Shown: positions 3,198 through 18,278 of the stretch, piece after piece
How the letters are laid out: the number at the start of each line of letters is the position of its first letter
How positions within the stretch are numbered: position 1 is the stretch's first letter
Virus record (IMG/VR): IMGVR_UViG_3300028775_000009
Length of the DNA stretch: 64,000 nucleotides
Origin: a virus
Direction: 5' to 3' (one strand)
Translations under genes and position numbers: made by a program
Notes under the pieces: model-generated
Told to the model about the DNA's origin: nothing
The model's input: only the letters and a program-made list of their open reading frames with translations
Databases searched by the model: none

Positions 3198-3710
3198 CTA
3201 CTGCGTATTTCTGGCCAGCATGATAAGATTCCGCGCCTTACCACGCTGATCTTCGGGGATGTGGTCGAATATGGTTCCACCGTTTAGGTGCTCAATCTCG
3301 TGCTGAACGCACCGAGCTGCAAGGTGGGAGAGTTCGATGTCGATCTCTTTCCCGCTTGGGGTTGTCGCCACCAGACGGACGCGCACCGCACGCTCCACCA
3401 TCACCTTGATCGTCGGTGGTAAGCTCATACACTCCTCGACCTTCGAGACGCGCTCGTTGCTCTCCCACACGATCTCCGGATTCACAAAGATGCTCTTGGT
3501 TTTGAGGCCGAGAAGCTTCGTATTCAGCACGAAGACGCGGTAGAGCGAACCGATCTGGTTGGCCGAGAGGCCCACGCTCTTCCGCTTCACCTGCTTCAAC
3601 GCAGCCATCAAGTCTTCGCCCACCTGTCGGGCGATGTCGTCACGACCTTCAGGAACCGGGACGCAGGGTGTAGTCAGGATTGGGTTGGGGTATTGGATGA
3701 TGTGCGGCAT
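3198..3710 (-). CDS. def: Peptide deformylase
   Basis: N-terminal IIQYPNPILTTPC plus three PDF motifs: VGLSANQIG, EECMS (EGCLS variant) and QHEIEHLNG (HExDH variant). Confidence 0.92.
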   Translation of the reverse strand: MPHIIQYPNPILTTPCVPVPEGRDDIARQVGEDLMAALKQVKRKSVGLSANQIGSLYRVFVLNTKLLGLKTKSIFVNPEIVWESNERVSKVEECMSLPPTIKVMVERAVRVRLVATTPSGKEIDIELSHLAARCVQHEIEHLNGGTIFDHIPEDQRGKARNLIMLARNTQ

Positions 3711-3961
3711 TAGACGGGTAACCCTCCCTCGCGTCGGGCAAGCTTCTCACCCTCTGCCATGTCCATCACCCGAATGACAAACTTTCCGCCACGGCAGTCA
3801 GCCACAACGCACTTCTCGTTGTCGCCGAGCCGCAAGACGTCCTCGGACAGAATCTCCACATCGGTCAGGCCAAACTTCAGCATGAGAACGCCCACGATCT
3901 TGTGCCAGTTATCGTGGGTGAGCCGCGTGACTGGATGATCGGGATTTAGTTCGTCACCCAC
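3710..3961 (-). CDS. Hypothetical protein (83 aa)
   Basis: 1-nt stop/start overlaps with both neighbours. Confidence 0.7.
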   Translation of the reverse strand: MGDELNPDHPVTRLTHDNWHKIVGVLMLKFGLTDVEILSEDVLRLGDNEKCVVADCRGGKFVIRVMDMAEGEKLARREGGLPV

Positions 3962-4161
3962 TAGCGGTTGAACCTCTCGATCCTGCGACGGAGGATATCC
4001 CTGTACACCGTCATCGCTGCACGTTGATCGACAAGATGCCGCCGGTCTATCTTGTCGAGGTTTTTGAAAATACTGGAGTCCTCGATGAAGACGTGTAGTT
4101 TCTCCAACTTTGCGTCCAGTTCCTCATGCTCGTCTACGACTCGCTGCTGATGTGCTTCCAT
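3961..4161 (-). CDS. Small helical phage protein (crAss001_48-like)
   Basis: HQQRVVDEHEELDAKLEKL...LVDQRAAMTVYRDILRRRI resembles a widespread phage family; GAGG RBS. Confidence 0.65.
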   Translation of the reverse strand: MEAHQQRVVDEHEELDAKLEKLHVFIEDSSIFKNLDKIDRRHLVDQRAAMTVYRDILRRRIERFNR

Positions 4162-4184
4162 TTTGGTTTCCTCGTCAAAATGTG

Positions 4185-4627
4185 GTGGGCAGAGGCGGGG
4201 TGTACAACCCCTGGCTTCCTCTGCCTTTTAGCATGCCCCGTTTACCCCGCACGAGACCCCTATCGCGTGTACTTGCCCTTGACGCCGGGCTTTCTGGTCA
4301 GGTCTTGGTTCGCCAAGCCGTTGCTAAAAACTTTAGTTGGGGTGACGGTCCCCGTTTACTCATCTGCCAGCCTGTACTCCGATGTGAGTTGGACTATCAC
4401 CGCTAACTTTGCCGCCGTCATTCGGCTCGGGTGAAGCTCTGTCGCTTTTCGTCTCTCAGCCCACTGGCCTTCGCGTTGGGTATATGTTGTGTCCTGAAAC
4501 TTTGGGCCATTTTCGTATTGAAATAGGCCTCCGTCAAAGTCATCGAATTTCGCTATAACCCGAGAAATAGCCGCTCGCGTAGGACATTTATAAGGTCCGT
4601 CTTAGAAGCGGGCTCATCCAGACCTGA
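4185..4627 (-). ncRNA. Candidate large structured RNA (~440 nt)
   Basis: No minus-strand ORF of 60 aa or more; directly downstream of a sigma70-like promoter. Long-range helix 4618-4627/4298-4308, 7-bp pairing 4558-4564/4426-4432 and many local hairpins. Confidence 0.55.
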
Positions 4628-4631
4628 AGAC

Positions 4632-4660
4632 AATCTACCGCATCATGCAAGCATGCGCAA
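4632..4660 (-). promoter_or_regulatory. Sigma70-like promoter TTGCGC-17-TAGATT with operator CATGCTTGCATG in the spacer
   Basis: -35 at 4660-4655, -10 at 4637-4632, operator at 4644-4655. Confidence 0.65.
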
Positions 4661-4677
4661 TGGTATCTTTGGTAACC

Positions 4678-4705
4678 AAAAAGAACCCACCCCGGCTAGG
4701 GTGGG
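4678..4705 (-). terminator. Intrinsic terminator
   Basis: CCCACCCU-AGCC-GGGGUGGG stem-loop followed by UUCUUUUU. Confidence 0.8.
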
Positions 4706-4763
4706 GAGTAGAGAGTTTCCCTTGGTTTACGTTCGCTGCGAATTTTCCAAGTTCACATCGAAT
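4678..4763 (-). ncRNA. Candidate ~85-nt small RNA
   Basis: Bracketed by a near-consensus promoter (4798-4770) and an intrinsic terminator; no credible ORF inside. Confidence 0.45.
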
Positions 4764-4769
4764 GCCGCG

Positions 4770-4798
4770 ATTCTAGGCATAGAAAAACCGGGCGTCAA
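4770..4798 (-). promoter_or_regulatory. Sigma70 promoter TTGACG-17-TAGAAT
   Basis: -35 at 4798-4793, -10 at 4775-4770, exact 17-nt spacer. Confidence 0.75.
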
Positions 4799-4814
4799 CA
4801 GGTTTATTCGATTA

Positions 4815-4946
4815 TTACCCATCGGCGGGCGGTATCTCGACTGGTTGACCGGGGGATGTGCCGGACGACCCCGGCGGCTTCAATGGGTTCGATGTGCGCG
4901 TCATTGGACCGAAAAAACCCACGAGTGTAAGGATGATTGCTAACAC
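4815..4946 (-). CDS. Small protein (43 aa), hydrophobic N-terminus and Pro/Gly/Ser tail
   Basis: GGAGGT RBS before GTG; translates as MLAIILTLVGFFGPMTRTSNPLKPPGSSGTSPGQPVEIPPADG. Not in the ORF track. Confidence 0.45.
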   Translation of the reverse strand: MLAIILTLVGFFGPMTRTSNPLKPPGSSGTSPGQPVEIPPADG

Positions 4947-4950
4947 GGGT

Positions 4951-5118
4951 TCACCTCCGCCTCTTTGACTTCCTGTTTGCGCTGCGATGCTTCACGCGCT
5001 TCGGGAGCTTGCGCTTGCCAGTCTCGCGCTGCCACTTCTTTGCGGTCCCACGCGGCAGTTCTCCCCTAGCCTCTTTGGCGTAGAAAAGTCGTCTTTGAGC
5101 CTCGCTCTTAAATGGCAT
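4951..5118 (-). CDS. Small basic phage protein (55 aa)
   Basis: MPFKSEAQRRLFYAKEARGELPRGTAKKWQRETGKRKLPKRVKHRSANRKSKRRR; the MPFKS.AQRR start is common in phage late regions. Not in the ORF track. Confidence 0.75.
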   Translation of the reverse strand: MPFKSEAQRRLFYAKEARGELPRGTAKKWQRETGKRKLPKRVKHRSANRKSKRRR

Positions 5119-5121
5119 GGC

Positions 5122-5271
5122 CTAGCGGAGTCCACCGCGAAGCAGCAGGATGATAAGGATGATGAGCAAGACGGTTCCGATGCTGAAGCCACCGTTATAA
5201 CCCAGCCCCGGCCCGGCATACCAGCCGCCGCCGAAGCAGAGCAGTACGAGTACGATGAGAAGAATAAGCAT
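5122..5271 (-). CDS. DUF3309-like small two-helix membrane protein (49 aa)
   Basis: GGAGG RBS; MLILLIVLVLLCFGGGWYAGPGLGYNGGFSIGTVLLIILIILLLRGGLR. Not in the ORF track. Confidence 0.7.
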   Translation of the reverse strand: MLILLIVLVLLCFGGGWYAGPGLGYNGGFSIGTVLLIILIILLLRGGLR

Positions 5272-5285
5272 TGTAGCCTCCGTGT

Positions 5286-8200
5286 TCACTGAATGGCGTG
5301 AGTCCTACGTCGTGCTGGCCGCCGATGCCGAATGTGCTCCGACTTCGATTCCTCTGGCTTCGCCGGTCTGAAAAAAGCTTCTACCGTTCCAACGGGTGCA
5401 ATTTCCTGCTTTGCGAGGTCTGCGAGGATTTTACTCCTGCGCTCCTCAGTCGATGCCTTATGGTGAACCCCGTCGTCCCCAAACGTCTTGTAGTAGTTGA
5501 TTCCCGCCAGTCGAATATGATCTAGGTCTGAGGCTAGGATGCCGCCTGATTCCTCAGCGGTTGCAAACTCCAGTCGCTTCTTCGTGTCGAACGACTTGAT
5601 ATCCTTCGGCTCGTGCGTCGCCAGCCGGTCAAACATGACCTTGGCAGGATAGATTCCCATGCCATACGACACGTTGCCAAGCTCGAGCCAGAGCGCATCC
5701 TGGGGGTGTTCCTGAATACCTTCGAACCGGCGTAGTTCTTCGGCGGCCGCTTCGGGGTTTTTCTTCTTGTTGATGCCATACTGCATGACGCGAAGGCCCA
5801 TACCAGCCGCTCCGAAGCCGATCAGCCAGCGCCCCAGAGCCTTATAGTCCTTCTCTGTCCAATCCGGGTTCTTCATGCCTTCAAACACGGTGCGATTCAC
5901 TAGGTTCGCCGTCTTGAAGGTGTAAGTTTTGAGCATCCAGGTCAGCCGCATTAGTGTATTCTGCTGCTTGCTGATTGGGTGGTCGGCGGCGTAGCGAACA
6001 CTTGGGGGCAACTCTGAGGGTCTGCCGCTACCCGTCGTCCAATCAGCAGCCGCAATCATCGCCCTGCGGACGTCGGAAGTGTTATAGCCCGACGCCGCGA
6101 TCCGGTCCATATCTTCGTCCGAATACGCATAGAGGTCCTGAAGCTTCCGACGGAGCTGCACATCCTTCGGGTTCGCCTTGAGCGCCGGCGCGGCGTAGCG
6201 CTCGAGGAAGACACGCCCCGCGGCCGAAGAAACAATCCGCGATATCCAGATGGCCGGCGTGAATCCGGTCAGGGTCAGCATCTTCTGGTCGAGGCCTCCC
6301 GCGTGGAGTCCATACTCCATCATCATCGCCTGGCGCACGTAGTCGGTGAGGATGCCTGCGTCCCGCGCCATGCGCGTCGCTTCAATCGGGCTCGTGGCCG
6401 TGCTGAAAACACCTCCGGCCAGGGATCGCAAATTGGTTACAAGTCCGGTTTTGGCCATGTGATACGGCAACTTCAGCGTGCTCAGGCCCATCTTCGACAA
6501 TACGACCCATTGCGACGCTGCGCGCAGGAGCCGCTTGTTGCTCTCACCCACAGACGAGGGGTTTAGGTCTGCGCTCACTACGCTGTCGACCACCTGCTGA
6601 GTAGCCAGCGGGAGTTGGAGGATGAGTGGATTCAGCTTCTCGCGCTCCTGCCCAACGGTCTCGATGTTTGCCAGCATCGACGCTACCTGGTCGACGTAGA
6701 CATTCATCGCACGGTTGGTGGTGTCGTAGTCGGGGATGCTGGTTCTGCGGCCTTTTTCGAGGTTGCCCGACAAGCGAACGCCACGGCGATTCTTTTCAAA
6801 GAACTTCGCTGCATCGACAACGCTGATTCCGCGCTTGCCGGCATAGGCTTCGATCAAGTCTTGGCGGCGCGCATCGTTCGTCGGCATGTCGTGGATCTCG
6901 CCAAGTGTCGTAACCGTCGGCTTTGCACCGTTTTTGCCTTCGATGAGGATCGGCTTATTCCAGTCGTAAATGTGTGGCCAGTAGTTCGGGTCATCCGCGA
7001 TCTGCTTGTAAGTCACCGTTTGCTCTTTGCCGTCGCGGTAGAACTTCATCTTGGCGCCAGCGTCTCCGAGACGGTTCCGCACGTACGAAAAGAACGTGCG
7101 GTAGCCGTCCACGGCCTTCAGGATGGCAGGGTCAGTGCTCTCTGCCTTGCCTTCGAGAACCTTCACAACGAGTGGGTGGTCGCTGGGCCGGATGTCACCG
7201 ATGATGTCGGACACTTTGGCCAGCAGTTCGCCCTGATGGTCAGTCTTCAGGTGGCTACGCTCGATCAACCGCCGCTGCACCTCGCGACCCTCGCTCGGGA
7301 AGCCTTCGTGGGCCATAATCTTGCGAATTGCCTGGTCGCCCGACGTGTGGCGCAGGTACATCCACTCACGCGCAAAGTCCTTCAGCGCCGCAAGCTGTTT
7401 GCCGGCCGTGTGCTGGAAGAAGAGACCGCGCTCACCTATTGCCAGATCGAAACCGATCTTCGAATCCTTTGCTGCGCGCTCGACCGCAGGCACAACCGGC
7501 TCACGCGCTACCGCAGCTTTTGCGCCCTCGATCGCTACATCGGCGGAGATGGCTGGCGTGTTCGCCAGATACGCTCTACGCATAGAAGGTGGTACATCTT
7601 CGAGGTTCCGCTTCATCGCCTCCGAGGTGCTCTTGTCGATGGGATCGTCCACCGGCCCCTGATAGAGACGCTTCGGCTGGGCCTTATACTTCATGCCTTT
7701 ATCCTTGCCGATTGCGTCCTTGGCCCGTGGCAGTTTCAAGTCCTCTATGCGCGTGAAACCTACTCCGGCCCCGCGCTCCTCAAACTGCGCGGCCTCCGGC
7801 GCAGATTCGTTGCCCATCTCGTAGTCGATTGCCTCTTCCGAGATGCCGACCGACTCGCGCAGACTCTTTGCAAGTCTGCTCTCGACTACCTCGCCACGCA
7901 CAACAGCGTTCAACGCCCGCATGCGCGGGAGGATTTTGGTCGTCAGCACCTTGATTTCGGGCAGCGCGTCGGATGTTAGGAAGATTTTGGCTACGTTCGA
8001 CTTCGTCCCGTAGCGCCACGTTCGGCCGGTGCTCTGCTCGAACATGATTCCAGACCACGGCAGGCCAAGGTGGATGTCCATTCTTGGACGGTCGCCAGCG
8101 CGATCGTGAAAACTAGCTCCAACACCGCCGGCAGCGTAGGTCGTATAAACGCCCTTCTTGGTTCCGTCCATGAATGCCTGGCGTTCTTCAGCGCGAAGCT

Positions 8201-11200
8201 CGTTTGCCGACCCAGCGAAGATCCCAATGTCCTGCTTCAGTCCATCGCGCATCGCCTCAACCACATCAGGCAGCGCTGGCAGCATCTTGTTGAGGTGGTC
8301 TGCCATTCCAGCGGGCAGACGCTCAAAGAACTTCATGCCTTCAGACGTCCCTGAGCGGTACTCGCTGTAGATCACGGGGTTCCAGCCGTCCGCAATAGCC
8401 TTCTTGGCCATCTCGATCGCATGCGGTAGCCGCGCCGACTCGATGTATCGCTTGAGGTAGATGACCTCCTGGGCCTGGGTCGCTCGTGCCATCGACGATT
8501 TGCCCTGTTCGCGGAAAATCTTTCCAGCAAGGTTGAATACGTCGCGAATCTTCTTCACGCCATCCTGCACCTCTGGTGTCTGCTCGACCAGTCCGACGTG
8601 CGCGGTGACGCCATCAAGGTCGCGGTGCAGCGATGCCCATTGGCCACGCTCAATAAGCTGCTGGCGGAGTTTCAAAAGCTTCTTTGGAGCGTAACCGCCT
8701 GTGTAGGAGTTGGGTCCGGTTTCGACCACGCCGAATTGACGGGCCCACTCGAAGAATCCGCCCTCCGGCCACAGCCCAAGCTTGTCCATATAGCCGATTT
8801 CGACAGCAGTATGAAACGGCGTCGCGCTCATGTAAACCGCTTTCTTCGCCGCCCGGCCTAAAAGACGACCACTTTGGCCCTGCTCTGACTCCATCCACTT
8901 TCGAAGCTCTGCCGACTCGTCGAAGATCACGAAGTCCCACGGGATCGACAGCATATCCTTGTCACCGCGAATCTGGGCGTAGGTCGTCGCGTACGTTCCG
9001 CCGCCTTGGACGTCGTTCATTGAGGCTGGTAGTCCTTCGACTGAAACTCCAAGCTGCTTGCCCACGTCTACATAGCCATCTGAATCGTGGATGAGGTTCC
9101 GGCTCCGAGTAACGATGAGTCCGACCTTTTCTCCAGAATCTCCTAGCAGTTGATCGGCGATCGCGAGCGCTTGGAACGTTTTCCCAGATCCGGTTGGACT
9201 CGCAACCACAACGCCGTCATACTGTTGCAGTCCAGAGAGAGCGACTTCGATAGCTTCCGGTTGCCCCGGAAAAATCATTAGATTGCGCAGGTCATCAGGC
9301 AACCTCACTGTCGGCGCTGGAGTACCCTCTGGCAACCCGAGAGCCTCCGCGTAGTCTCTCCATGCCTCCGGCGACGCCAGCGGGGTGCCGCGGGCGCGCT
9401 TTGGCGCAGCCAGCGATGCTGCTGGCATCTTTGCTAGGGGGAGACTGGCTGCTCGTTTTCCGTCAGCAGTTTCCTCTCCTCTTCCACTAGGCTCTGGATG
9501 TCCTGGTAGAACCCGTCCGGTGGTCTCATCCCGCCCGTCGGCCGCTCCGGTTCGTTCAGGAACTTCCGCAGTTCGAGTAGCGTCGGGTAGCCCAGCATTT
9601 CCATCAGGTACTTCTCGTACGTTTGCCCTTTCGCCATCGCGTCCTCCAAATTCCGTGGTGCCGTACACCTGACGCGCCGACATCGCCTGCGCAGGGGTGG
9701 TTGGCTCCTCCATGTGTGGCATTTCCGCCACACCATGCACTGCATTGATTACTTCTGAATTTGCCCTCTCTGGCGTACTGCCGAAGATGAGCGTGGAACC
9801 ACCCAGTCGATTCTCAACACTGGCCAGTTGCGCCCGAATCTTCGCCTCTTCGCGGGGATCAGTTGTAGTTCGGAGCCGCTCCTCAAGTTGCCGAGCCTGA
9901 CGAGCAAGGTCCCCGATAGATGCCGCTCCGCCCTGATAAAGCCGCTTGCCAACCGTCGAAGCCTTGACATAGAAGTTACCGTCCTTCCCGTCGAAAAGCT
10001 GGTAAGTGCGAATTGCCTGATTGTTGCGGTCGATGAAATCGTCTGCCGATTTGCGATCAGTGAACACAAAATTTCGGGCGTTCGGGTCGATGTGCGCTGT
10101 CTCGTCCAAAATCCTCGCACCCTCTGGAATGGCGACTTTGGGGTCCTTGACCGACTTCTCGAGCGCGTCAACGTCGACACGCGCCGTAATCGGCTTCCGC
10201 TCCGACCGGGTCCAGTCGTACCAATTGTCGAACATCTTCTCGACTTCGGGAGAAGCCTTCGCCAGACCACGGCCACGCACCGCATCGTAAACAGCCTGAA
10301 TTGCCTTGTGGATGGTGTCGAAGGCCTTTTCGAGAGCGCCGCGGCGTCGGCCGCCATCGTAGTGATACCGCTCGAAGGCCTCCGCAAACTTCTCTTCCTG
10401 CGCCGTCGTCCACTCTGCACCCGGTCTGGCCTCGACAAACTGGTTGAGAATCGCCTGATCGCTTCCGTTGAGGTAGTGCCGGATAGCGTGCGCAGCCTCG
10501 TGGATGACAGTCGAGGTGTCCGCTTTGTCGAAGAGGTGAATCAACTTCGATCCGTCCTCCATAATGTCGGTCGCACCGCGAGCTCCACGGTCTTCGCCGC
10601 CAAAACGGAAGCGAATCATCTTGTTCTTGAGGATCGTGTCGAACGACTCGCCAATAGCGCGTGGCAGAACCCGCTCGAAGATATCTCCAACCGCTTCAGC
10701 CTGCTCGTCGGTAAATCCGGGGTGGTCAGCCAACGCCTTGCGGAAATCGCGCACACTGGTGGGTTCGAAGCCTTTCTCGTTCTCGATAACCGAACTGGAG
10801 TCCGGCTGGATTGCCTCTTCCACAGCTTCAGCCGCACGCGCTGGTTCCACCGGAAGTCCGTTCCGCGCCTCTTCGATGATCTCCTTGGCTGCGTCAGGGA
10901 GCCCACCAACCATGCCCCACTCTTCAGGAATGACCTCCATACCGTACTTGCTGGCAATCTGCTCGGTGAATACATCTGCCGGGTGGATGGCTCCGAACAT
11001 CGTCACGCCGCCGCGCTCCGCCTCTTCGGCGTAGTCGCCAATCATGTTGGCGTACTCGCGTGGAGTCTCTTCGAGAGCTCGCGCCAGAGATTCAACCGCC
11101 GGATGGACCGGTGGGTGTGTTGCCTGACCATCAAAACTCAGATCGAAGTTCGAAAGGCGATACCGCTCTGGATGGAGAAGACGCTCGATAAGCGATTCGC

Positions 11201-14200
11201 TGCCGTGAGACTCGTCCTTGGTGACATCTCTTCCTTCGAGTTGATTCAGCCTTGCGGACTGGTCTTGTGCGCGGGTCATCAGTTCGACCGCATCCGTGTT
11301 GTAGCTCGCTAGATTCCAGATTTCACCAGCCGAACGCATGATGACGAAGTCCATGCCCACGCGGCCAAGCTTGTCCTTGATCGCCGCGCTGGTTCGACCG
11401 AGCACCTGCGGATTCGAGACGGCGATTCCCGCTAGGGTGTTTTCAATGAGCGCCTTCGCGGGCTCCGTCAGGTCACCATCCTCGGTGAAGTAGGCTGAGC
11501 GCTTCTTTGGATCAACCAGACCGGCATCGCGAAGGATGTCAGCAAGGTCGGCAGAACGCGCACGCATCGCCGTCCGCAAGCTGGAGTCTCCGGATACCGA
11601 CCGAAACACGTTCGCCATCCGCTCGACGACGGATGGAGTCAGTAGCCGTGAAAGAGCCGCCGATTGCTCGGTGGAGCTCATCCCCTGGCTGGGGTCGCGA
11701 TTCATCTCGATGCCATACCGCGCCAGCGTGGCAGGGTCGGTCACCGTGCGGTCCATCACCCGGACAAGCACGGGGTTGCGCATCTCGAAGATGGAAGCGG
11801 GGTCGATACCAAACGCCTGTGCGCGGTCAAGGATCGAGGCTCGAACCTCTTCGTACCGGCCACGCTTCTGCGCCAGCTTCATGCTCTGCGTGCGTCCGTT
11901 TCCCGACAGCACCGTGCCGTCAGGCATAACGATCGGTGGCCCATCCACCGGCAACACGGAGTTGCTGAGGATCTGGTCAGCGTCAAGCGCGCCAGCACGC
12001 TCCTCTACAGCCGCCTGGAGTTCCGGTTGATCTTGGTAGTTGCGCGGTTGCGCTTCCTGCGGGTAGCGCGGGTCTGGTGTGTAATTTTCAGTACTACGAT
12101 GAGAAGTAATAAGATTATTAGAATCGACAACCGCATAGTGGACTGGCACCTCTTCGCCAGAGTTCAACCTGACACGAGTTTCTCGGCCTAGAATGGCCGG
12201 CATTTTTGGATTCGTCTCGCGCTCCGTACGTGGTTTGACCACCTCAGTCGCCGCGACAATCTCATCCTCTTTGCGCTGGATAAAGTCAGCCGTGTCACGC
12301 AGCGCCTCGGCTTCAGCCTTCTGCTCCGGTAGTGCCTCGGGACCACCCAGACGGTCGGCGGCCCGGTTGATGACCTGCTTCTGGTCTTCAAAGTGGACTA
12401 CCTCACGCGCAGCTCGTTCAGTGCCAGATTCAATGTCGGTACGCATCCGCGAGATGAGGTCTTCCCGATAAGCATCGAGCACCTGACGCTCAGCCGCAGC
12501 ACGGGTCTGCCGCATCTGGCTCATAAACTCGTTCATGTCCGGAGAGCGCTGGCTCTCGGGTATCTTCCGAATGGCGCGCTGCACGTCAAAGATGTCGCGT
12601 GACCCGCCAACATCCTGAAGGTTGATGCGCTCTGCCAAACGGGTCAGGCCTTTCGCCTGGTTGGTTAGGGCCTCCCCTGCTCCAGTCTCCGCCGATGTTG
12701 CATTGGTAATCGTGTTGCGAATCTGCTGCACATGGTCTGCGCGAGCTTCACGCACTGCCTGCCCGGCAAGCTCCTGATCGACCTGTGCGCGGGTCGAATC
12801 GCGATAGGCCATCAGCGTGTCGACCTGCTGCCTGTCGCGTAAAGACGCCTCGTAGTTGGCAACGTCGATATGCTCACCGCGAGAGAGACGGTCAGCAATC
12901 TCTGGCGTGGTAAACGCTTTGGCGCGTGCCGGATCTTCATTGAGGAAGCCAGCCAGCGCGGACACCTGATCGCTCTTTTCGATGGCGTCGAAGCTCTTGC
13001 CGAAGTTTTTCTCCGAGTACTCCGAAAGTGCCCGGTAGATGTCGGGTGCGGCCTTCATCGAAGCTGCAATGTTTGAGTGCTCGAGGATGACTCGTGCCAA
13101 GCCAGCAGTCTCATCCGCTCCCGGCGCCAGGGGTTCGCCTGTACCTTCGTTGCGGTTCATCCAGCGCGTGACGGCTGGCCTCGAAGCTTCGACCATATCG
13201 GCGTGACGGCGATACGCATCGTAGGCTGGCGTCGCTTTGAAGGCGTCCCACTTCTCCGGCTGCTCGCGCTCAAACTTCGATGCAACCTCGCGCTGGCGAT
13301 CAAGCGGCAAGCTCGAGAATGAGGCCCCAGCGTTCTCTTCGGCATACTCCTGCACTGGCCGCTCCAGTTCGGAAGCAGTCTGAATTTCGACCGATCCTGG
13401 AGCGGTGCGCTTGTCCACCACTTTGACGCCACCCTCCATCGGCTCGGGACTGGGAGCGTGGACGGGTTCCGTTTCCTTTTCGGTCGTCTTGACCAATCCT
13501 CGATCACCACGGGTGTTGCGTCGCTGATCGTTGACACCGAATCCGCGCTCTTCAGCGGCCGGGGTAATCTCGTCGGCCTTAGCAGCCTGATACTGTGTGC
13601 GTCGCTGGGCTTCTTCGTTGGCTTTGACTTTAGCCTCAGCCGCCGCCTGCGCCTGCTTGTACTGCTCCGCCGCCCGCTGACGCTGTAATTCTTGGCCTAG
13701 AACAGTTTTGGCCGCCTGCAATCTGGCGGAGTTGGCTTTTGCTCGGTCGTTCATCCACTCGATATCAGCCTGAGCGTCGCCGCGAGTCTGCGACTTGCGA
13801 ATCTTGTCCGTCTCCTGGTCCACGCGCTTGCGAAACCCTGGACTTTGATCCTCTACTGAGGAGTAGAGTGTATGCGCCTTCTCGGGGTCGGTAAGCTGTT
13901 TAAATGGCTTCTTATAGAGGTCCTTCGCTTTATCGTTGAGTCGAGCGGTATTCTCGCCGCCCTCGGCGATCTTGCCACCAACGTGCGGAACGACGATCAT
14001 GGCGACGTTTGCCGCCATCTCGCCCCAAGCTTCGTTTTCTCCGGCATCGTCCCCACGCTGACGAGCTTCGTGGATCTGGTGCGCGGTATCGACGATACCC
14101 TCGCCCATAGTCGGCATCATCGCCAAACCAACGGCGTGCATCGCGGACGCAACATACTCGCCACCCTTGACCACCGCAGCGCCCGGAGCGGCCATCATCG

Positions 14201-14660
14201 CGACTTGTGTGGGCGACGTCATCCCAGATACAGCGCGGGATGCTCCCTTCGAAAGTTGCCCCAGCTTCGTCTTCGGGTTGACTGGGAATAGCTCTTCCAC
14301 CGCTACGAGCGGGTGGTTGACAAAGTTGCGAAATGCCGCGGTATAATCGCCGGTAACCTGCGCAGCCTGCTTCGCTTCACTAACAGCGCCGCTGGCTCCG
14401 GAGTAGCCCACCGTGTTCTTTACACGCTCCCACCATGTCGGGTTATAGGCGCTGATCGACGCAGTCGGAGCTTCAGTTTTCGGTTTCTCGGCAGGCTTGT
14501 CGAATGAACCGACGACAGCGCCGGCTGGAAGACCCTTGATCTTCGGCGCGTCGGTGTGCTTTGGTTTAGGCTGCGGCTTTGAGAATGAGCCGACAACGGC
14601 TCCCGGTGGAAGTCCCTTCACTGCGGGCGGGTTTACTTGCTCGTCTGCCATGTACGCCAA
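5286..14660 (-). CDS. Giant polyvalent (DarB-like) virion/ejection protein, 3124 aa: DdrB-like ParB domain, zincin metallopeptidase, strawberry-notch-like SF2 helicase
   Basis: GPPIVMPDGTVLSGNGRT (~aa 920); VIHEAAH (~aa 1390); SPTGSGKT (~aa 1820), FDESAE, YMSATPF and QSTGRTWRYG (~aa 2215); last large gene of the ejection-protein block. Confidence 0.8.
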   Translation of the reverse strand: MAYMADEQVNPPAVKGLPPGAVVGSFSKPQPKPKHTDAPKIKGLPAGAVVGSFDKPAEKPKTEAPTASISAYNPTWWERVKNTVGYSGASGAVSEAKQAAQVTGDYTAAFRNFVNHPLVAVEELFPVNPKTKLGQLSKGASRAVSGMTSPTQVAMMAAPGAAVVKGGEYVASAMHAVGLAMMPTMGEGIVDTAHQIHEARQRGDDAGENEAWGEMAANVAMIVVPHVGGKIAEGGENTARLNDKAKDLYKKPFKQLTDPEKAHTLYSSVEDQSPGFRKRVDQETDKIRKSQTRGDAQADIEWMNDRAKANSARLQAAKTVLGQELQRQRAAEQYKQAQAAAEAKVKANEEAQRRTQYQAAKADEITPAAEERGFGVNDQRRNTRGDRGLVKTTEKETEPVHAPSPEPMEGGVKVVDKRTAPGSVEIQTASELERPVQEYAEENAGASFSSLPLDRQREVASKFEREQPEKWDAFKATPAYDAYRRHADMVEASRPAVTRWMNRNEGTGEPLAPGADETAGLARVILEHSNIAASMKAAPDIYRALSEYSEKNFGKSFDAIEKSDQVSALAGFLNEDPARAKAFTTPEIADRLSRGEHIDVANYEASLRDRQQVDTLMAYRDSTRAQVDQELAGQAVREARADHVQQIRNTITNATSAETGAGEALTNQAKGLTRLAERINLQDVGGSRDIFDVQRAIRKIPESQRSPDMNEFMSQMRQTRAAAERQVLDAYREDLISRMRTDIESGTERAAREVVHFEDQKQVINRAADRLGGPEALPEQKAEAEALRDTADFIQRKEDEIVAATEVVKPRTERETNPKMPAILGRETRVRLNSGEEVPVHYAVVDSNNLITSHRSTENYTPDPRYPQEAQPRNYQDQPELQAAVEERAGALDADQILSNSVLPVDGPPIVMPDGTVLSGNGRTQSMKLAQKRGRYEEVRASILDRAQAFGIDPASIFEMRNPVLVRVMDRTVTDPATLARYGIEMNRDPSQGMSSTEQSAALSRLLTPSVVERMANVFRSVSGDSSLRTAMRARSADLADILRDAGLVDPKKRSAYFTEDGDLTEPAKALIENTLAGIAVSNPQVLGRTSAAIKDKLGRVGMDFVIMRSAGEIWNLASYNTDAVELMTRAQDQSARLNQLEGRDVTKDESHGSESLIERLLHPERYRLSNFDLSFDGQATHPPVHPAVESLARALEETPREYANMIGDYAEEAERGGVTMFGAIHPADVFTEQIASKYGMEVIPEEWGMVGGLPDAAKEIIEEARNGLPVEPARAAEAVEEAIQPDSSSVIENEKGFEPTSVRDFRKALADHPGFTDEQAEAVGDIFERVLPRAIGESFDTILKNKMIRFRFGGEDRGARGATDIMEDGSKLIHLFDKADTSTVIHEAAHAIRHYLNGSDQAILNQFVEARPGAEWTTAQEEKFAEAFERYHYDGGRRRGALEKAFDTIHKAIQAVYDAVRGRGLAKASPEVEKMFDNWYDWTRSERKPITARVDVDALEKSVKDPKVAIPEGARILDETAHIDPNARNFVFTDRKSADDFIDRNNQAIRTYQLFDGKDGNFYVKASTVGKRLYQGGAASIGDLARQARQLEERLRTTTDPREEAKIRAQLASVENRLGGSTLIFGSTPERANSEVINAVHGVAEMPHMEEPTTPAQAMSARQVYGTTEFGGRDGERANVREVPDGNAGLPDATRTAEVPERTGAADGRDETTGRVLPGHPEPSGRGEETADGKRAASLPLAKMPAASLAAPKRARGTPLASPEAWRDYAEALGLPEGTPAPTVRLPDDLRNLMIFPGQPEAIEVALSGLQQYDGVVVASPTGSGKTFQALAIADQLLGDSGEKVGLIVTRSRNLIHDSDGYVDVGKQLGVSVEGLPASMNDVQGGGTYATTYAQIRGDKDMLSIPWDFVIFDESAELRKWMESEQGQSGRLLGRAAKKAVYMSATPFHTAVEIGYMDKLGLWPEGGFFEWARQFGVVETGPNSYTGGYAPKKLLKLRQQLIERGQWASLHRDLDGVTAHVGLVEQTPEVQDGVKKIRDVFNLAGKIFREQGKSSMARATQAQEVIYLKRYIESARLPHAIEMAKKAIADGWNPVIYSEYRSGTSEGMKFFERLPAGMADHLNKMLPALPDVVEAMRDGLKQDIGIFAGSANELRAEERQAFMDGTKKGVYTTYAAGGVGASFHDRAGDRPRMDIHLGLPWSGIMFEQSTGRTWRYGTKSNVAKIFLTSDALPEIKVLTTKILPRMRALNAVVRGEVVESRLAKSLRESVGISEEAIDYEMGNESAPEAAQFEERGAGVGFTRIEDLKLPRAKDAIGKDKGMKYKAQPKRLYQGPVDDPIDKSTSEAMKRNLEDVPPSMRRAYLANTPAISADVAIEGAKAAVAREPVVPAVERAAKDSKIGFDLAIGERGLFFQHTAGKQLAALKDFAREWMYLRHTSGDQAIRKIMAHEGFPSEGREVQRRLIERSHLKTDHQGELLAKVSDIIGDIRPSDHPLVVKVLEGKAESTDPAILKAVDGYRTFFSYVRNRLGDAGAKMKFYRDGKEQTVTYKQIADDPNYWPHIYDWNKPILIEGKNGAKPTVTTLGEIHDMPTNDARRQDLIEAYAGKRGISVVDAAKFFEKNRRGVRLSGNLEKGRRTSIPDYDTTNRAMNVYVDQVASMLANIETVGQEREKLNPLILQLPLATQQVVDSVVSADLNPSSVGESNKRLLRAASQWVVLSKMGLSTLKLPYHMAKTGLVTNLRSLAGGVFSTATSPIEATRMARDAGILTDYVRQAMMMEYGLHAGGLDQKMLTLTGFTPAIWISRIVSSAAGRVFLERYAAPALKANPKDVQLRRKLQDLYAYSDEDMDRIAASGYNTSDVRRAMIAAADWTTGSGRPSELPPSVRYAADHPISKQQNTLMRLTWMLKTYTFKTANLVNRTVFEGMKNPDWTEKDYKALGRWLIGFGAAGMGLRVMQYGINKKKNPEAAAEELRRFEGIQEHPQDALWLELGNVSYGMGIYPAKVMFDRLATHEPKDIKSFDTKKRLEFATAEESGGILASDLDHIRLAGINYYKTFGDDGVHHKASTEERRSKILADLAKQEIAPVGTVEAFFRPAKPEESKSEHIRHRRPARRRTHAIQ

Positions 14661-17078: not shown

Positions 17079-17142
17079 ATCGCTACCGCTCCTTCCCCAA
17101 AACGCAGTCTTCCCTGCATCCTAGAGGCAGAACAGATAATCA

Positions 17143-17654
17143 TCAAGGGATGTGCAAGCTATTTTCTCGGCTGAGAATCCTGTTGCGAGACGTAGTGGCC
17201 GGATCGACAAAGGCAACAACCGCTTTGGGATGCCGAGCCTGTAGAATCGCCCTCTGCTTTTCGAGTCCCACGGGGTCTCCGGCCAGCACTACCGACTCCT
17301 GAACTGGGGTTCCATTAGGGAGAATTGCCTGAAGCACGACGACGTACTTGTCCCTGATTTGATCCTTCGTGTAGATGTGGCCCAATAGACTGCCATGCCG
17401 ACCGTGTAGCGCCTCTTTGGCGATGGTCGCCGCCGATATTTTCGAGGGTCTAAAGATGTACGTTCCCGCGCCGCGCCCTCCAACTTCAACAGATTCCATG
17501 CCTTCAGGAATAGCTGGCGTGTAGCGGGAGCGCGCTGGGAGCATAACCACGTCGATGCTGCCCGAACGCAGTGAGTCCATCTGCGCATCTATCGTGGCAA
17601 CGGACTCCTCGACGACCGGCTCTTCGGACGAGCCAACAAGGAGTTCCGAGTCTA
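17143..17654 (-). CDS. ~170-aa hypothetical ORF, probably the -1 frameshift extension of the GNAT
   Basis: Open in the -1 frame across the GNAT stop; no convincing independent RBS/start. Confidence 0.55.
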
Positions 17655-17675
17655 CTTTTTTTGGGAATAGGCCTC
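17602..17675 (-). other. Programmed -1 ribosomal frameshift signal
   Basis: A_AAA_AAG (17661-17655) just before TAG, GAGG 10 nt upstream, long stem-loop (17647-17602) 7 nt downstream. Confidence 0.65.
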
Positions 17676-18278
17676 GATTAGAACTTTCTCGACATAGGCT
17701 TCGAAGTCTTCGCGGAGGAGGCAGGACGTTACGCAGGGCACGAGAACGCCTTTTTTCATCTCCCATCGAGGGTGAAATCCGGTGTCTTTGAAGCCGAAAC
17801 GTGTCAGAAAGTGCTTTGTCTGGTGGTTGTCCTCATAGCGGATGCCGTGTACCACCTCGAGCTTGAGTTCTTGAAACATGAAAGCCAGACCCAGCAGCCC
17901 CAGCGCCTCAGCGTCAACCGACCCCCAGTACTCGCGAAAGAAGGCATACCCCGCCATGATACCTTTGCCGCCGGCCACGGTCACAGTCCGGAAGATAATG
18001 CCAGCCGGCGTGAACTCCTCACCGTCCCACCGGCCCATAATAACCAGCGGCGTCTTGCTTAGGTAGGAGGTGATTGAGTCCCATGAGATGTCCATGCCGA
18101 AAAACAGCGATTCGAGTATCCCCGTGCCATTTGGGTTGCGATTCGAGTAGCGATCGCCCTTCAGCTTTTGATAGATGAGCCCCAGATAGCCTTCAGGGAA
18201 ATCCGTGCGCAGATAGCCCCGCGCATGGAGATCCCCGACCCTATACTTGTCTTCGGTGAAAGCGTCGAGTATCGACAT
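17652..18278 (-). CDS. GNAT-family (RimJ/RimL-like) acetyltransferase
   Basis: AGYAFFREYWGS...LGLAFMFQELKLEVVHG..YEDNHQTKHFLTRFGFKDTG; GNATs commonly sit before ejection genes in podoviruses. Confidence 0.75.
   Translation of the reverse strand: MSILDAFTEDKYRVGDLHARGYLRTDFPEGYLGLIYQKLKGDRYSNRNPNGTGILESLFFGMDISWDSITSYLSKTPLVIMGRWDGEEFTPAGIIFRTVTVAGGKGIMAGYAFFREYWGSVDAEALGLLGLAFMFQELKLEVVHGIRYEDNHQTKHFLTRFGFKDTGFHPRWEMKKGVLVPCVTSCLLREDFEAYVEKVLIEAYSQKK

Follow-up and report, generated by a model that had tools for sequence, protein, structure and literature searches.

A probable programmed −1 frameshift linking a predicted GNAT acetyltransferase to a polyvalent-protein domain in a peat phage

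The subject of this analysis is a two-frame gene arrangement in a soil (peat) phage, represented by a 64,000-nucleotide (nt) stretch of the IMG/VR virus record IMGVR_UViG_3300028775_000009, referred to at its full length as the window. Within a region whose genes all lie on the minus strand, an open reading frame (ORF) for a predicted GNAT acetyltransferase of 208 amino acids (aa) ends in the heptamer A_AAA_AAG directly before its stop codon, and a second ORF of 170 codons, encoding a conserved domain that we designate X, continues in the −1 frame. Our results indicate that a programmed −1 ribosomal frameshift at this heptamer probably produces a 378-aa GNAT-X protein beside the 208-aa GNAT. 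A preliminary description of this DNA had proposed a frameshift of the dnaX/insertion sequence (IS) type, and that interpretation is supported by the conservation of the heptamer in a second lineage and by in-frame fusions of the same two domains, with the Shine-Dalgarno (SD)-like element and the 6-nt hairpin spacing found in the window lineage only. The features of the cassette are the following.

17652..18278, minus strand: zero-frame GNAT ORF (P0001, 208 aa), stop codon TAG at 17652-17654
17655..17661, minus strand: slippery heptamer A_AAA_AAG, adjoining the zero-frame TAG and read by the GNAT frame as X_XXY_YYZ
17672..17675, minus strand: SD-like GAGG, a possible 5' stimulator, 10 nt 5' of the heptamer
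17601..17648, minus strand: hairpin predicted by RNAfold, a possible 3' stimulator, starting 6 nt 3' of the heptamer
17146..17655, minus strand: −1 frame ORF, domain X, 170 codons, stop codon TGA at 17143-17145
17578..17580, minus strand: in-frame ATG, M26 of domain X, the start chosen by gene callers (145-aa product)
17764..17766, minus strand: −1 frame ATG inside the GNAT gene, start of a mechanical 207-aa ORF

The 3' end of the GNAT ORF reads TCC CAA AAA AAG TAG, and the −1 frame translation, ..FPKKVDSELLVGSSEEP.., runs as ..FPKKVDSE.. around the shift site. The elements named in the preliminary description were recovered where it had placed them: the GNAT end CAA AAA AAG TAG with the heptamer adjoining the stop (17652-17661), the GAGG 10 nt upstream (17672-17675), a stem-loop that coincides with the hairpin at 17601-17648, a −1 frame beginning PKKVDSE and open to the TGA, and two products, predicted at 208 and ~378 aa, for which the coordinates give 208 and 378 aa. 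A heptamer with an SD element and a 3' structure as classical stimulators makes up the −1 frameshift cassette reviewed in PMC5009743. The hairpin, in which a 4-nt bulge separates the outer from the inner stem and the loop measures 7 nt, has a predicted free energy of −25.1 kcal/mol, with z-scores of −1.9 to −2.3 against dinucleotide shuffles. When compared with 1000 synonymous recodings of the peptide that it encodes, it is the more stable in 97.6% of cases (z −2.2; 2.4% fold as well). The heptamer by itself proves nothing, and its significance lies in its position and in the comparative data presented below. A second AAAAAAG at 17750-17756 (minus strand), inside the GNAT gene (GAG ATG AAA AAA GGC), is out of X_XXY_YYZ register, its lysines are replaced by arginines in most homologues, and it is probably irrelevant. 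On the coding strand between GNAT and X, no promoter- or terminator-like site was detected. At least 20 metagenome runs from peat contain the phage, with contigs of ~97 kb. Independent assemblies from ENA (L019), JGI (L020) and Logan (three) agree letter for letter at the A7G junction, which indicates that the junction is not an assembly error.

In the proposed mechanism, the lysine tRNAs on AAA (P site) and AAG (A site) would re-pair to AAA AAA; the next codon would then be GTA, with G17655 read twice, and translation would run on through X. Occurring at the last two sense codons, the shift would allow a fraction of ribosomes to bypass the TAG. By analogy with known cassettes, the GAGG at −10, the hairpin at +6 and the adjacent stop codon would help the shift. 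We infer that the slip is ribosomal and that both products are functional. The predicted fusion would carry the junction ..SQKK-VDSE.. and the peptide VDSELLVGSSEEP, neither of which occurs in the 145-aa species started at M26.

One indication that the −1 frame is read from the junction onwards is that X is a real, conserved and foldable domain that starts at the shift site. In a 35-member alignment (A3), the family opens with the motif (V/I)GSxxEPVxEESRxTxDAQ, of which VGSxxEPVxEE marks the beginning of X in all of the closest polyvalent relatives and corresponds to residue 6-7 of the −1 ORF in the window; true stand-alone X proteins begin 2-5 residues ahead of the VGS motif. The AlphaFold2 (AF2) model of the full 170 residues reaches a predicted local distance difference test (pLDDT) score of 95.4, with two strands and helix 1 in residues 6-31. 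Strands b1 and b2 and half of helix a1 (residues 6-25) precede M26, as do E17, T21 and Q25, all invariant in alignment A3, so that a product started at M26 would be a truncated domain. The family-invariant positions E, T, Q, H, GH, Q and R are all kept in the window sequence.

The same conclusion is reached from substitution patterns. Between the window and the second lineage described below (L007), the ratio of nonsynonymous to synonymous rates (dN/dS) of X is ~0.17. In the 21 codons compared before M26, the proportions of nonsynonymous and synonymous differences (pN and pS) are 0.21 and 0.61, compared with 0.35 and 0.73 for the whole of X. This purifying selection on the codons before the ATG argues that the stretch is translated in the −1 frame in both lineages. 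The column of M26 is occupied by Met or another hydrophobic residue throughout the family, also deep inside polyvalent proteins, and no SD sequence lies 3-13 nt from its ATG; M26 is therefore probably not the physiological N-terminus of X. The other ATG, at 17764-17766, likewise has no SD, and the overlapping reading that it opens lacks conservation. The earlier statement that the downstream ORF lacks its own start was thus literally incorrect, as two ATGs exist, but it holds in the sense that neither fits the boundary of domain X; no independent start is usefully present, the one at M26 losing 25 residues, three of them invariant.

Comparison across related loci gave further evidence. In a second lineage, recovered with identical sequence in three runs (L007, L008 and L009), GNAT is ~60% and X 50% identical to the window, and the GNAT gene ends ATC CAA AAA AAA CCG TAA, with the homologous codons forming A_AAA_AAA and X likewise encoded in the −1 frame. 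In L007 this frame is closed 15 codons before the A-run, and it holds no ATG, GTG or TTG ahead of the N-terminus of X. X is intact and free of stop codons in both lineages, over 170 codons in the window and 169 in L007. Five GNAT loci that lack X (L001, L004, L010, L013 and L016) have no heptamer at the GNAT end, and a further locus, L011, ends in an imperfect C_AAA_AAG, with no X within the 76 nt that its contig covers after it; the co-occurrence of heptamer and X rests on this small sample of loci. The loci without X differ in what follows the GNAT gene. In L001 and L013 it ends GCA AAA TAG/TAA and is followed by the intergenic element that comes after X in the window; in L004 by a GroES/Tad2-like/GroEL block (3642-6278); and in L010 by a GIY-YIG homing-type endonuclease (905-1885). 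In L016, GNAT instead bears a C-terminal tail.

In-frame fusions provide a complementary line of evidence. P0042 (387 aa), 41% identical to P0001, is an in-frame GNAT-X protein, and P0119, P0030 and P0048 are in-frame fusions in the opposite order, X-GNAT. P0119 is encoded in the related phage L017 at the syntenic position, between a gene for a ~1350-aa protein and genes for ~210-aa, ~540-aa and giant proteins. These Rosetta-stone fusions argue that a covalent GNAT+X protein is a selected product. Thus, both comparative checks suggested with the original proposal, conservation of the slippery site and in-frame fusion in homologues, turned out in its favor.

Several observations weigh against a programmed ribosomal frameshift. 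The GNAT layout with X in the −1 frame was seen in two lineages only, and in L007 the GAGG is absent, the homologous hairpin, separated from the A-run by ~30 nt, is too distant to act as a classical stimulator, and its stability is not clearly above that of synonymous recodings. Even in the window, the z-scores of the hairpin are modest, and the count of AAAAAAG (6, versus 6.7 expected) is at chance level. M26 is conserved as an ATG in the window, L007 and L015, the last of these a 524-bp contig (P0021) that ends before the junction, and some independent initiation there is possible. No tRNA gene lies in the window, the tRNA-Lys repertoire being that of the host, and no RNA run is among the sequencing runs listed for the locus. 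Given the missing SD and the distant hairpin, the event in L007 would be a shift on A_AAA_AAA without stimulators or else transcriptional slippage on its A8.

The latter process, in which RNA polymerase adds one A on the A7 of the window (A8 in L007), would give the same products and is an established route to this outcome on A/T runs (PMC5009743). A homopolymeric A-run at the junction in both lineages fits it, as does the lack of an SD and of a well-spaced hairpin in L007, where a route other than a stimulated ribosomal shift may act. We nevertheless consider it unlikely, because efficient bacterial slippage is described for runs of ~9 (PMC5009743), compared with which A7 is short, and because the site in the window has features that are irrelevant to a slipping polymerase. 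These are a heptamer that is optimal for a ribosomal shift, with G as its last base, the SD 10 nt upstream and the hairpin 6 nt downstream, which surpasses nearly all synonymous recodings. That X is instead a separate gene, translated from the ATG at 17578-17580 into 145 aa beside a coincidental heptamer, strikes us as very unlikely. The ATG is shared by three loci, public gene calls start there (P0018, P0032 and P0021), the heptamer count is what chance would give, and about half of the mechanical ORF starts in the window also lack a clear SD. However, a product started at M26 would lose E17, T21, Q25, b1, b2 and half of a1, from a stretch whose codons are under purifying selection in the −1 frame. 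Met or a hydrophobic residue at this column is a general feature of the family, including copies inside polyvalent proteins, this ATG has no SD at a working distance (3-13 nt), and genuine stand-alone X proteins start before the VGS motif. Also against this reading, a slippery run lies before a −1 frame X in both lineages that have X, with none in the five loci that lack it and an imperfect one in L011.

The arrangement could also be the remnant of an in-frame GNAT-X gene, broken by a 1-nt indel in the A-run and leaving X unexpressed. Homopolymers are prone to indels, and an in-frame GNAT-X does exist elsewhere (P0042). Yet X is intact in two lineages at 50% identity, with a low dN/dS, and the persistence of a selected domain across that divergence contradicts an unexpressed X; the junction is fixed in at least 20 peat samples, and the flanks, described below, suggest that X was inserted at an old GNAT stop codon rather than split from a fusion. 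We regard decay as hardly credible. Thus, a programmed −1 ribosomal frameshift at A_AAA_AAG remains the probable explanation.

The assignment of the upstream ORF depends largely on its predicted structure. At the sequence level, P0001 matched Pfam Acetyltransf_3 at E 0.0011 (20.2 bits, below the cut-off of 25.4) and PHROG 4470 at E 7e-4, with no match in NCBIfam. The alignment-based AF2 model (pLDDT 89) retrieved SpeG, RimJ, RimL-like proteins and PseH in Foldseek at E ~1e-9, with probability 1.0 and template-modelling (TM) scores of 0.6-0.78. On this model, the protein is a GNAT fold, from a divergent branch of the superfamily. Its 15 homologues, 39-100% identical, come from soil and peat metagenomes. 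A tblastn search with GNAT and X against 50,697 phage records gave no match, nor did single-protein scans of viral contigs; a scan of viral contigs with alignment A1 recovered one locus, L016, which is a GNAT without X. Several proteins of this clade carry at their C-terminus an acidic linker rich in Pro, followed by a short hydrophobic tail that resembles LSWL; this may be a docking motif, and the window protein does not have it. The C-termini of GNAT and GNAT-X proteins read ..PELPLSWL in P0017/L016, ..QQSLSWL in P0042, ..RPLWE in P0048 and ..PLFDGIPRFR in P0012 and P0013.

Domain X has a broader distribution. An exhaustive phmmer search identified 101 relatives, with E-values down to 1e-35. 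The closest of them (44-54% identity, E 1e-35 to 1e-25) lie inside phage proteins of 2000-4500 aa, ~400-800 residues from the start, which also carry Strawberry-notch (Sno) or SNF2 helicase, N6-methylase (N6-MTase) or PBECR5 domains, and which count as polyvalent proteins as Iyer et al. 2017 use the term (PMC5512222). Phages inject polyvalent proteins together with their DNA, and X is a standard module in the early part of such proteins. Other relatives are stand-alone proteins of 150-200 aa or fusions to Acb1-like 2H phosphoesterases. In P0028 (558 aa), P0043 (646 aa) and P0023 (3162 aa), X was observed with an Acb1-like 2H phosphoesterase or within a PBECR5-nuclease polyvalent protein. Judged from these domain architectures, X repeatedly accompanies putative counter-defence-type enzymes, namely GNAT, Acb1-like 2H phosphoesterase and PBECR5. 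Ten mid-sized proteins that contain X showed no Pfam partner domains. A word-index search for X at near lengths returned only the window's own cluster; a scan of metagenome contigs with alignment A4 returned nothing, and one with alignment A6 returned only polyvalent proteins from metagenome and viral contigs and nothing from genome contigs.

No match to X was found in Pfam, PHROG, NCBIfam or a PDB sequence profile. Searches with its model gave no assignable fold, the best results being E 0.25 in Foldseek against PDB, Z 5.0 in the wide VIA-align search, TM up to 0.39 in the atlas and feature scores up to 0.86 in the protein atlas. The InPase domain (PF18823) was considered as an identity for X and rejected: none of the 35 members matched at E ≤ 1, and InPase needs an OB fold and four conserved acidic residues, while the X model is alpha/beta with one invariant acidic residue and an atlas TM of 0.39. 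We also discarded P0022 (211 aa; L014, 3001-3636) as a third frameshift case, as no GNAT lies upstream of it; it probably represents a stand-alone X, to which an over-long gene call has added ~47 arginine-rich residues at the N-terminus. In L014, P0022 is followed by a SprT-like gene.

The flanks of X offer some insight into the origin of the arrangement. In L007, the X cassette is bounded on both sides by GTAAAA(A)TAG (3646-3665 and 4146-4160), and the 3' copy is followed by TCTGCCTATCCC.., the same sequence that follows the GNAT stop codon in relatives without X. In the window, the repeats at the ends of X are AAAA(G)TAG (17652-17661) and AAAATAG (17155-17165). These direct repeats of the GNAT terminus suggest, at the sequence level, that X was inserted at an old ..AAA TAG stop codon of GNAT; the A-run would then have been available to become a slippery site.

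Downstream of X lies an intergenic element, TCCCTTGATGATT..17 nt..TA(CC/GG)AT GCAGGGAAGACTGC GTTTT, which is conserved at the nucleotide level among phages with only ~60% identity between their proteins. It resembles a −35/−10 promoter with a small hairpin after it, and it stands just upstream of genes for a 176-aa protein, a 557-aa protein and the polyvalent protein. Its positions are the following.

17100-17150, minus strand: intergenic element in the window
3628-3695: intergenic element in L001
1378-1445: intergenic element in L013
4150-4220: intergenic element in L007

The GNAT gene itself lies between the gene of a 1349-aa protein and a block that ends in the phage's 3124-aa polyvalent protein (5286-14660, minus strand), 3 kb downstream of GNAT-X; the placement of GNAT ahead of the ejection proteins, as worded in the preliminary description, is suggested by this context. 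The 3124-aa protein matches a DdrB-like ParB domain (residues 834-969) and a DEAD/ResIII helicase. It contains no copy of domain X, and its N-terminal 1300 residues show no similarity to the X-bearing P0023. In related phages, the slot around GNAT was seen to be a variable accessory and anti-defence hotspot, and an Acb2/Tad1-hairpin gene lies just upstream of GNAT in L011 (2589-2801) and L012.

With respect to function, numerous polar residues of X are invariant (E, T, Q, H, H, Q, S and R), and X has a PGAG loop, which would suit a ligand-binding or catalytic site; it could equally be a module for incorporation or delivery. We propose, with low confidence, that the shift sets the ratio of free GNAT to GNAT tethered to the binding partner of X. 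Speculatively, X, as a module also present in injected polyvalent proteins and in Acb1-like 2H phosphoesterase fusions, may add a further property to those GNAT molecules that carry it, for instance incorporation into the virion and delivery, or the binding of a target or ligand, with the unfused enzyme remaining free. One form of this idea, which we hold to be doubtful, is a partitioning in which X directs the fused GNAT into the virion for delivery with the DNA to the next cell and the unfused enzyme stays in the producing cell. If that were true, X would be a module for virion incorporation or delivery that has so far gone unrecognised, that shows no detected similarity to known folds and that phages attach to GNAT, Acb1-like 2H phosphoesterase and PBECR5 enzymes, either by fusion in both orders or by recoding.

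Whichever function applies, X is a widespread, confidently folding and unnamed domain of polyvalent proteins that has repeatedly been joined to effector enzymes, and the 378-aa GNAT-X would represent a small, tractable two-domain system in which to study it. The 145-aa protein that public annotation assigns to X is probably incorrect. Natural controls exist in relatives without the extension and in relatives with constitutive fusions in both domain orders. To our knowledge, the catalogued programmed frameshifts of tailed phages are almost confined to tail chaperones and capsid proteins; here, the device would be applied to an accessory enzyme, probably host-modifying or counter-defence. In the literature that we searched, no instance was found of recoding that attaches a polyvalent-protein domain to an accessory acetyltransferase of a phage.

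Among the closest known systems is E. coli dnaX, in which an SD-like element lies 10 nt upstream of the heptamer and a stem-loop ~6 nt downstream, spacings that match those of the window. The same A_AAA_AAG heptamer there allows one gene to give two products, tau and gamma, with a common N-terminal part (PMC5009743). The outcome differs, as the shift in E. coli leads to the shorter product, whereas in the window the stop codon adjoins the site and the shift would lead to the longer one; such a reversed layout, mentioned for a few bacterial dnaX genes (PMC5009743), matches the window. Neither the gene nor the appended domain is related to those of dnaX, and the organism here is a phage. In the OrfA-OrfB pairs of IS3/IS911, an A-rich heptamer close to the 3' end of the first ORF is likewise the site of a −1 shift, and, as in the window, the second ORF has no functional start and is reached through the fusion, with SD and RNA structure stimulating the shift (PMC5009743). 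In contrast to these elements, GNAT-X is not a transposase, its ORFs barely overlap and there is no three-way junction.

Phage frameshifts such as those of the lambda tail-assembly chaperone G/GT and the T7 capsid protein 10A/10B maintain a fixed ratio of a short and a C-terminally extended protein, and the extension made in G/GT anchors the protein to a virion structure. The window differs from both in its slippery site and in that the protein extended is an accessory enzyme (GNAT) and not a morphogenetic protein. GNATs are also among the domains of polyvalent proteins, and solo GNATs near late structural genes have been proposed to be deployed with the capsid (PMC5512222). Polyvalent proteins are encoded in a single frame, whereas the window would hold a two-domain "mini-polyvalent" protein assembled by recoding, and X matches no Pfam family, including those built from the polyvalent-protein study (PMC5512222). 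In P0042, P0119, P0030 and P0048, which come from metagenomic phages, the same two domains form a constitutive fusion, in either order, with no slippery site and no free GNAT. The mechanism proposed here is a textbook one, and what appears to be new is the gene context in which it is found.

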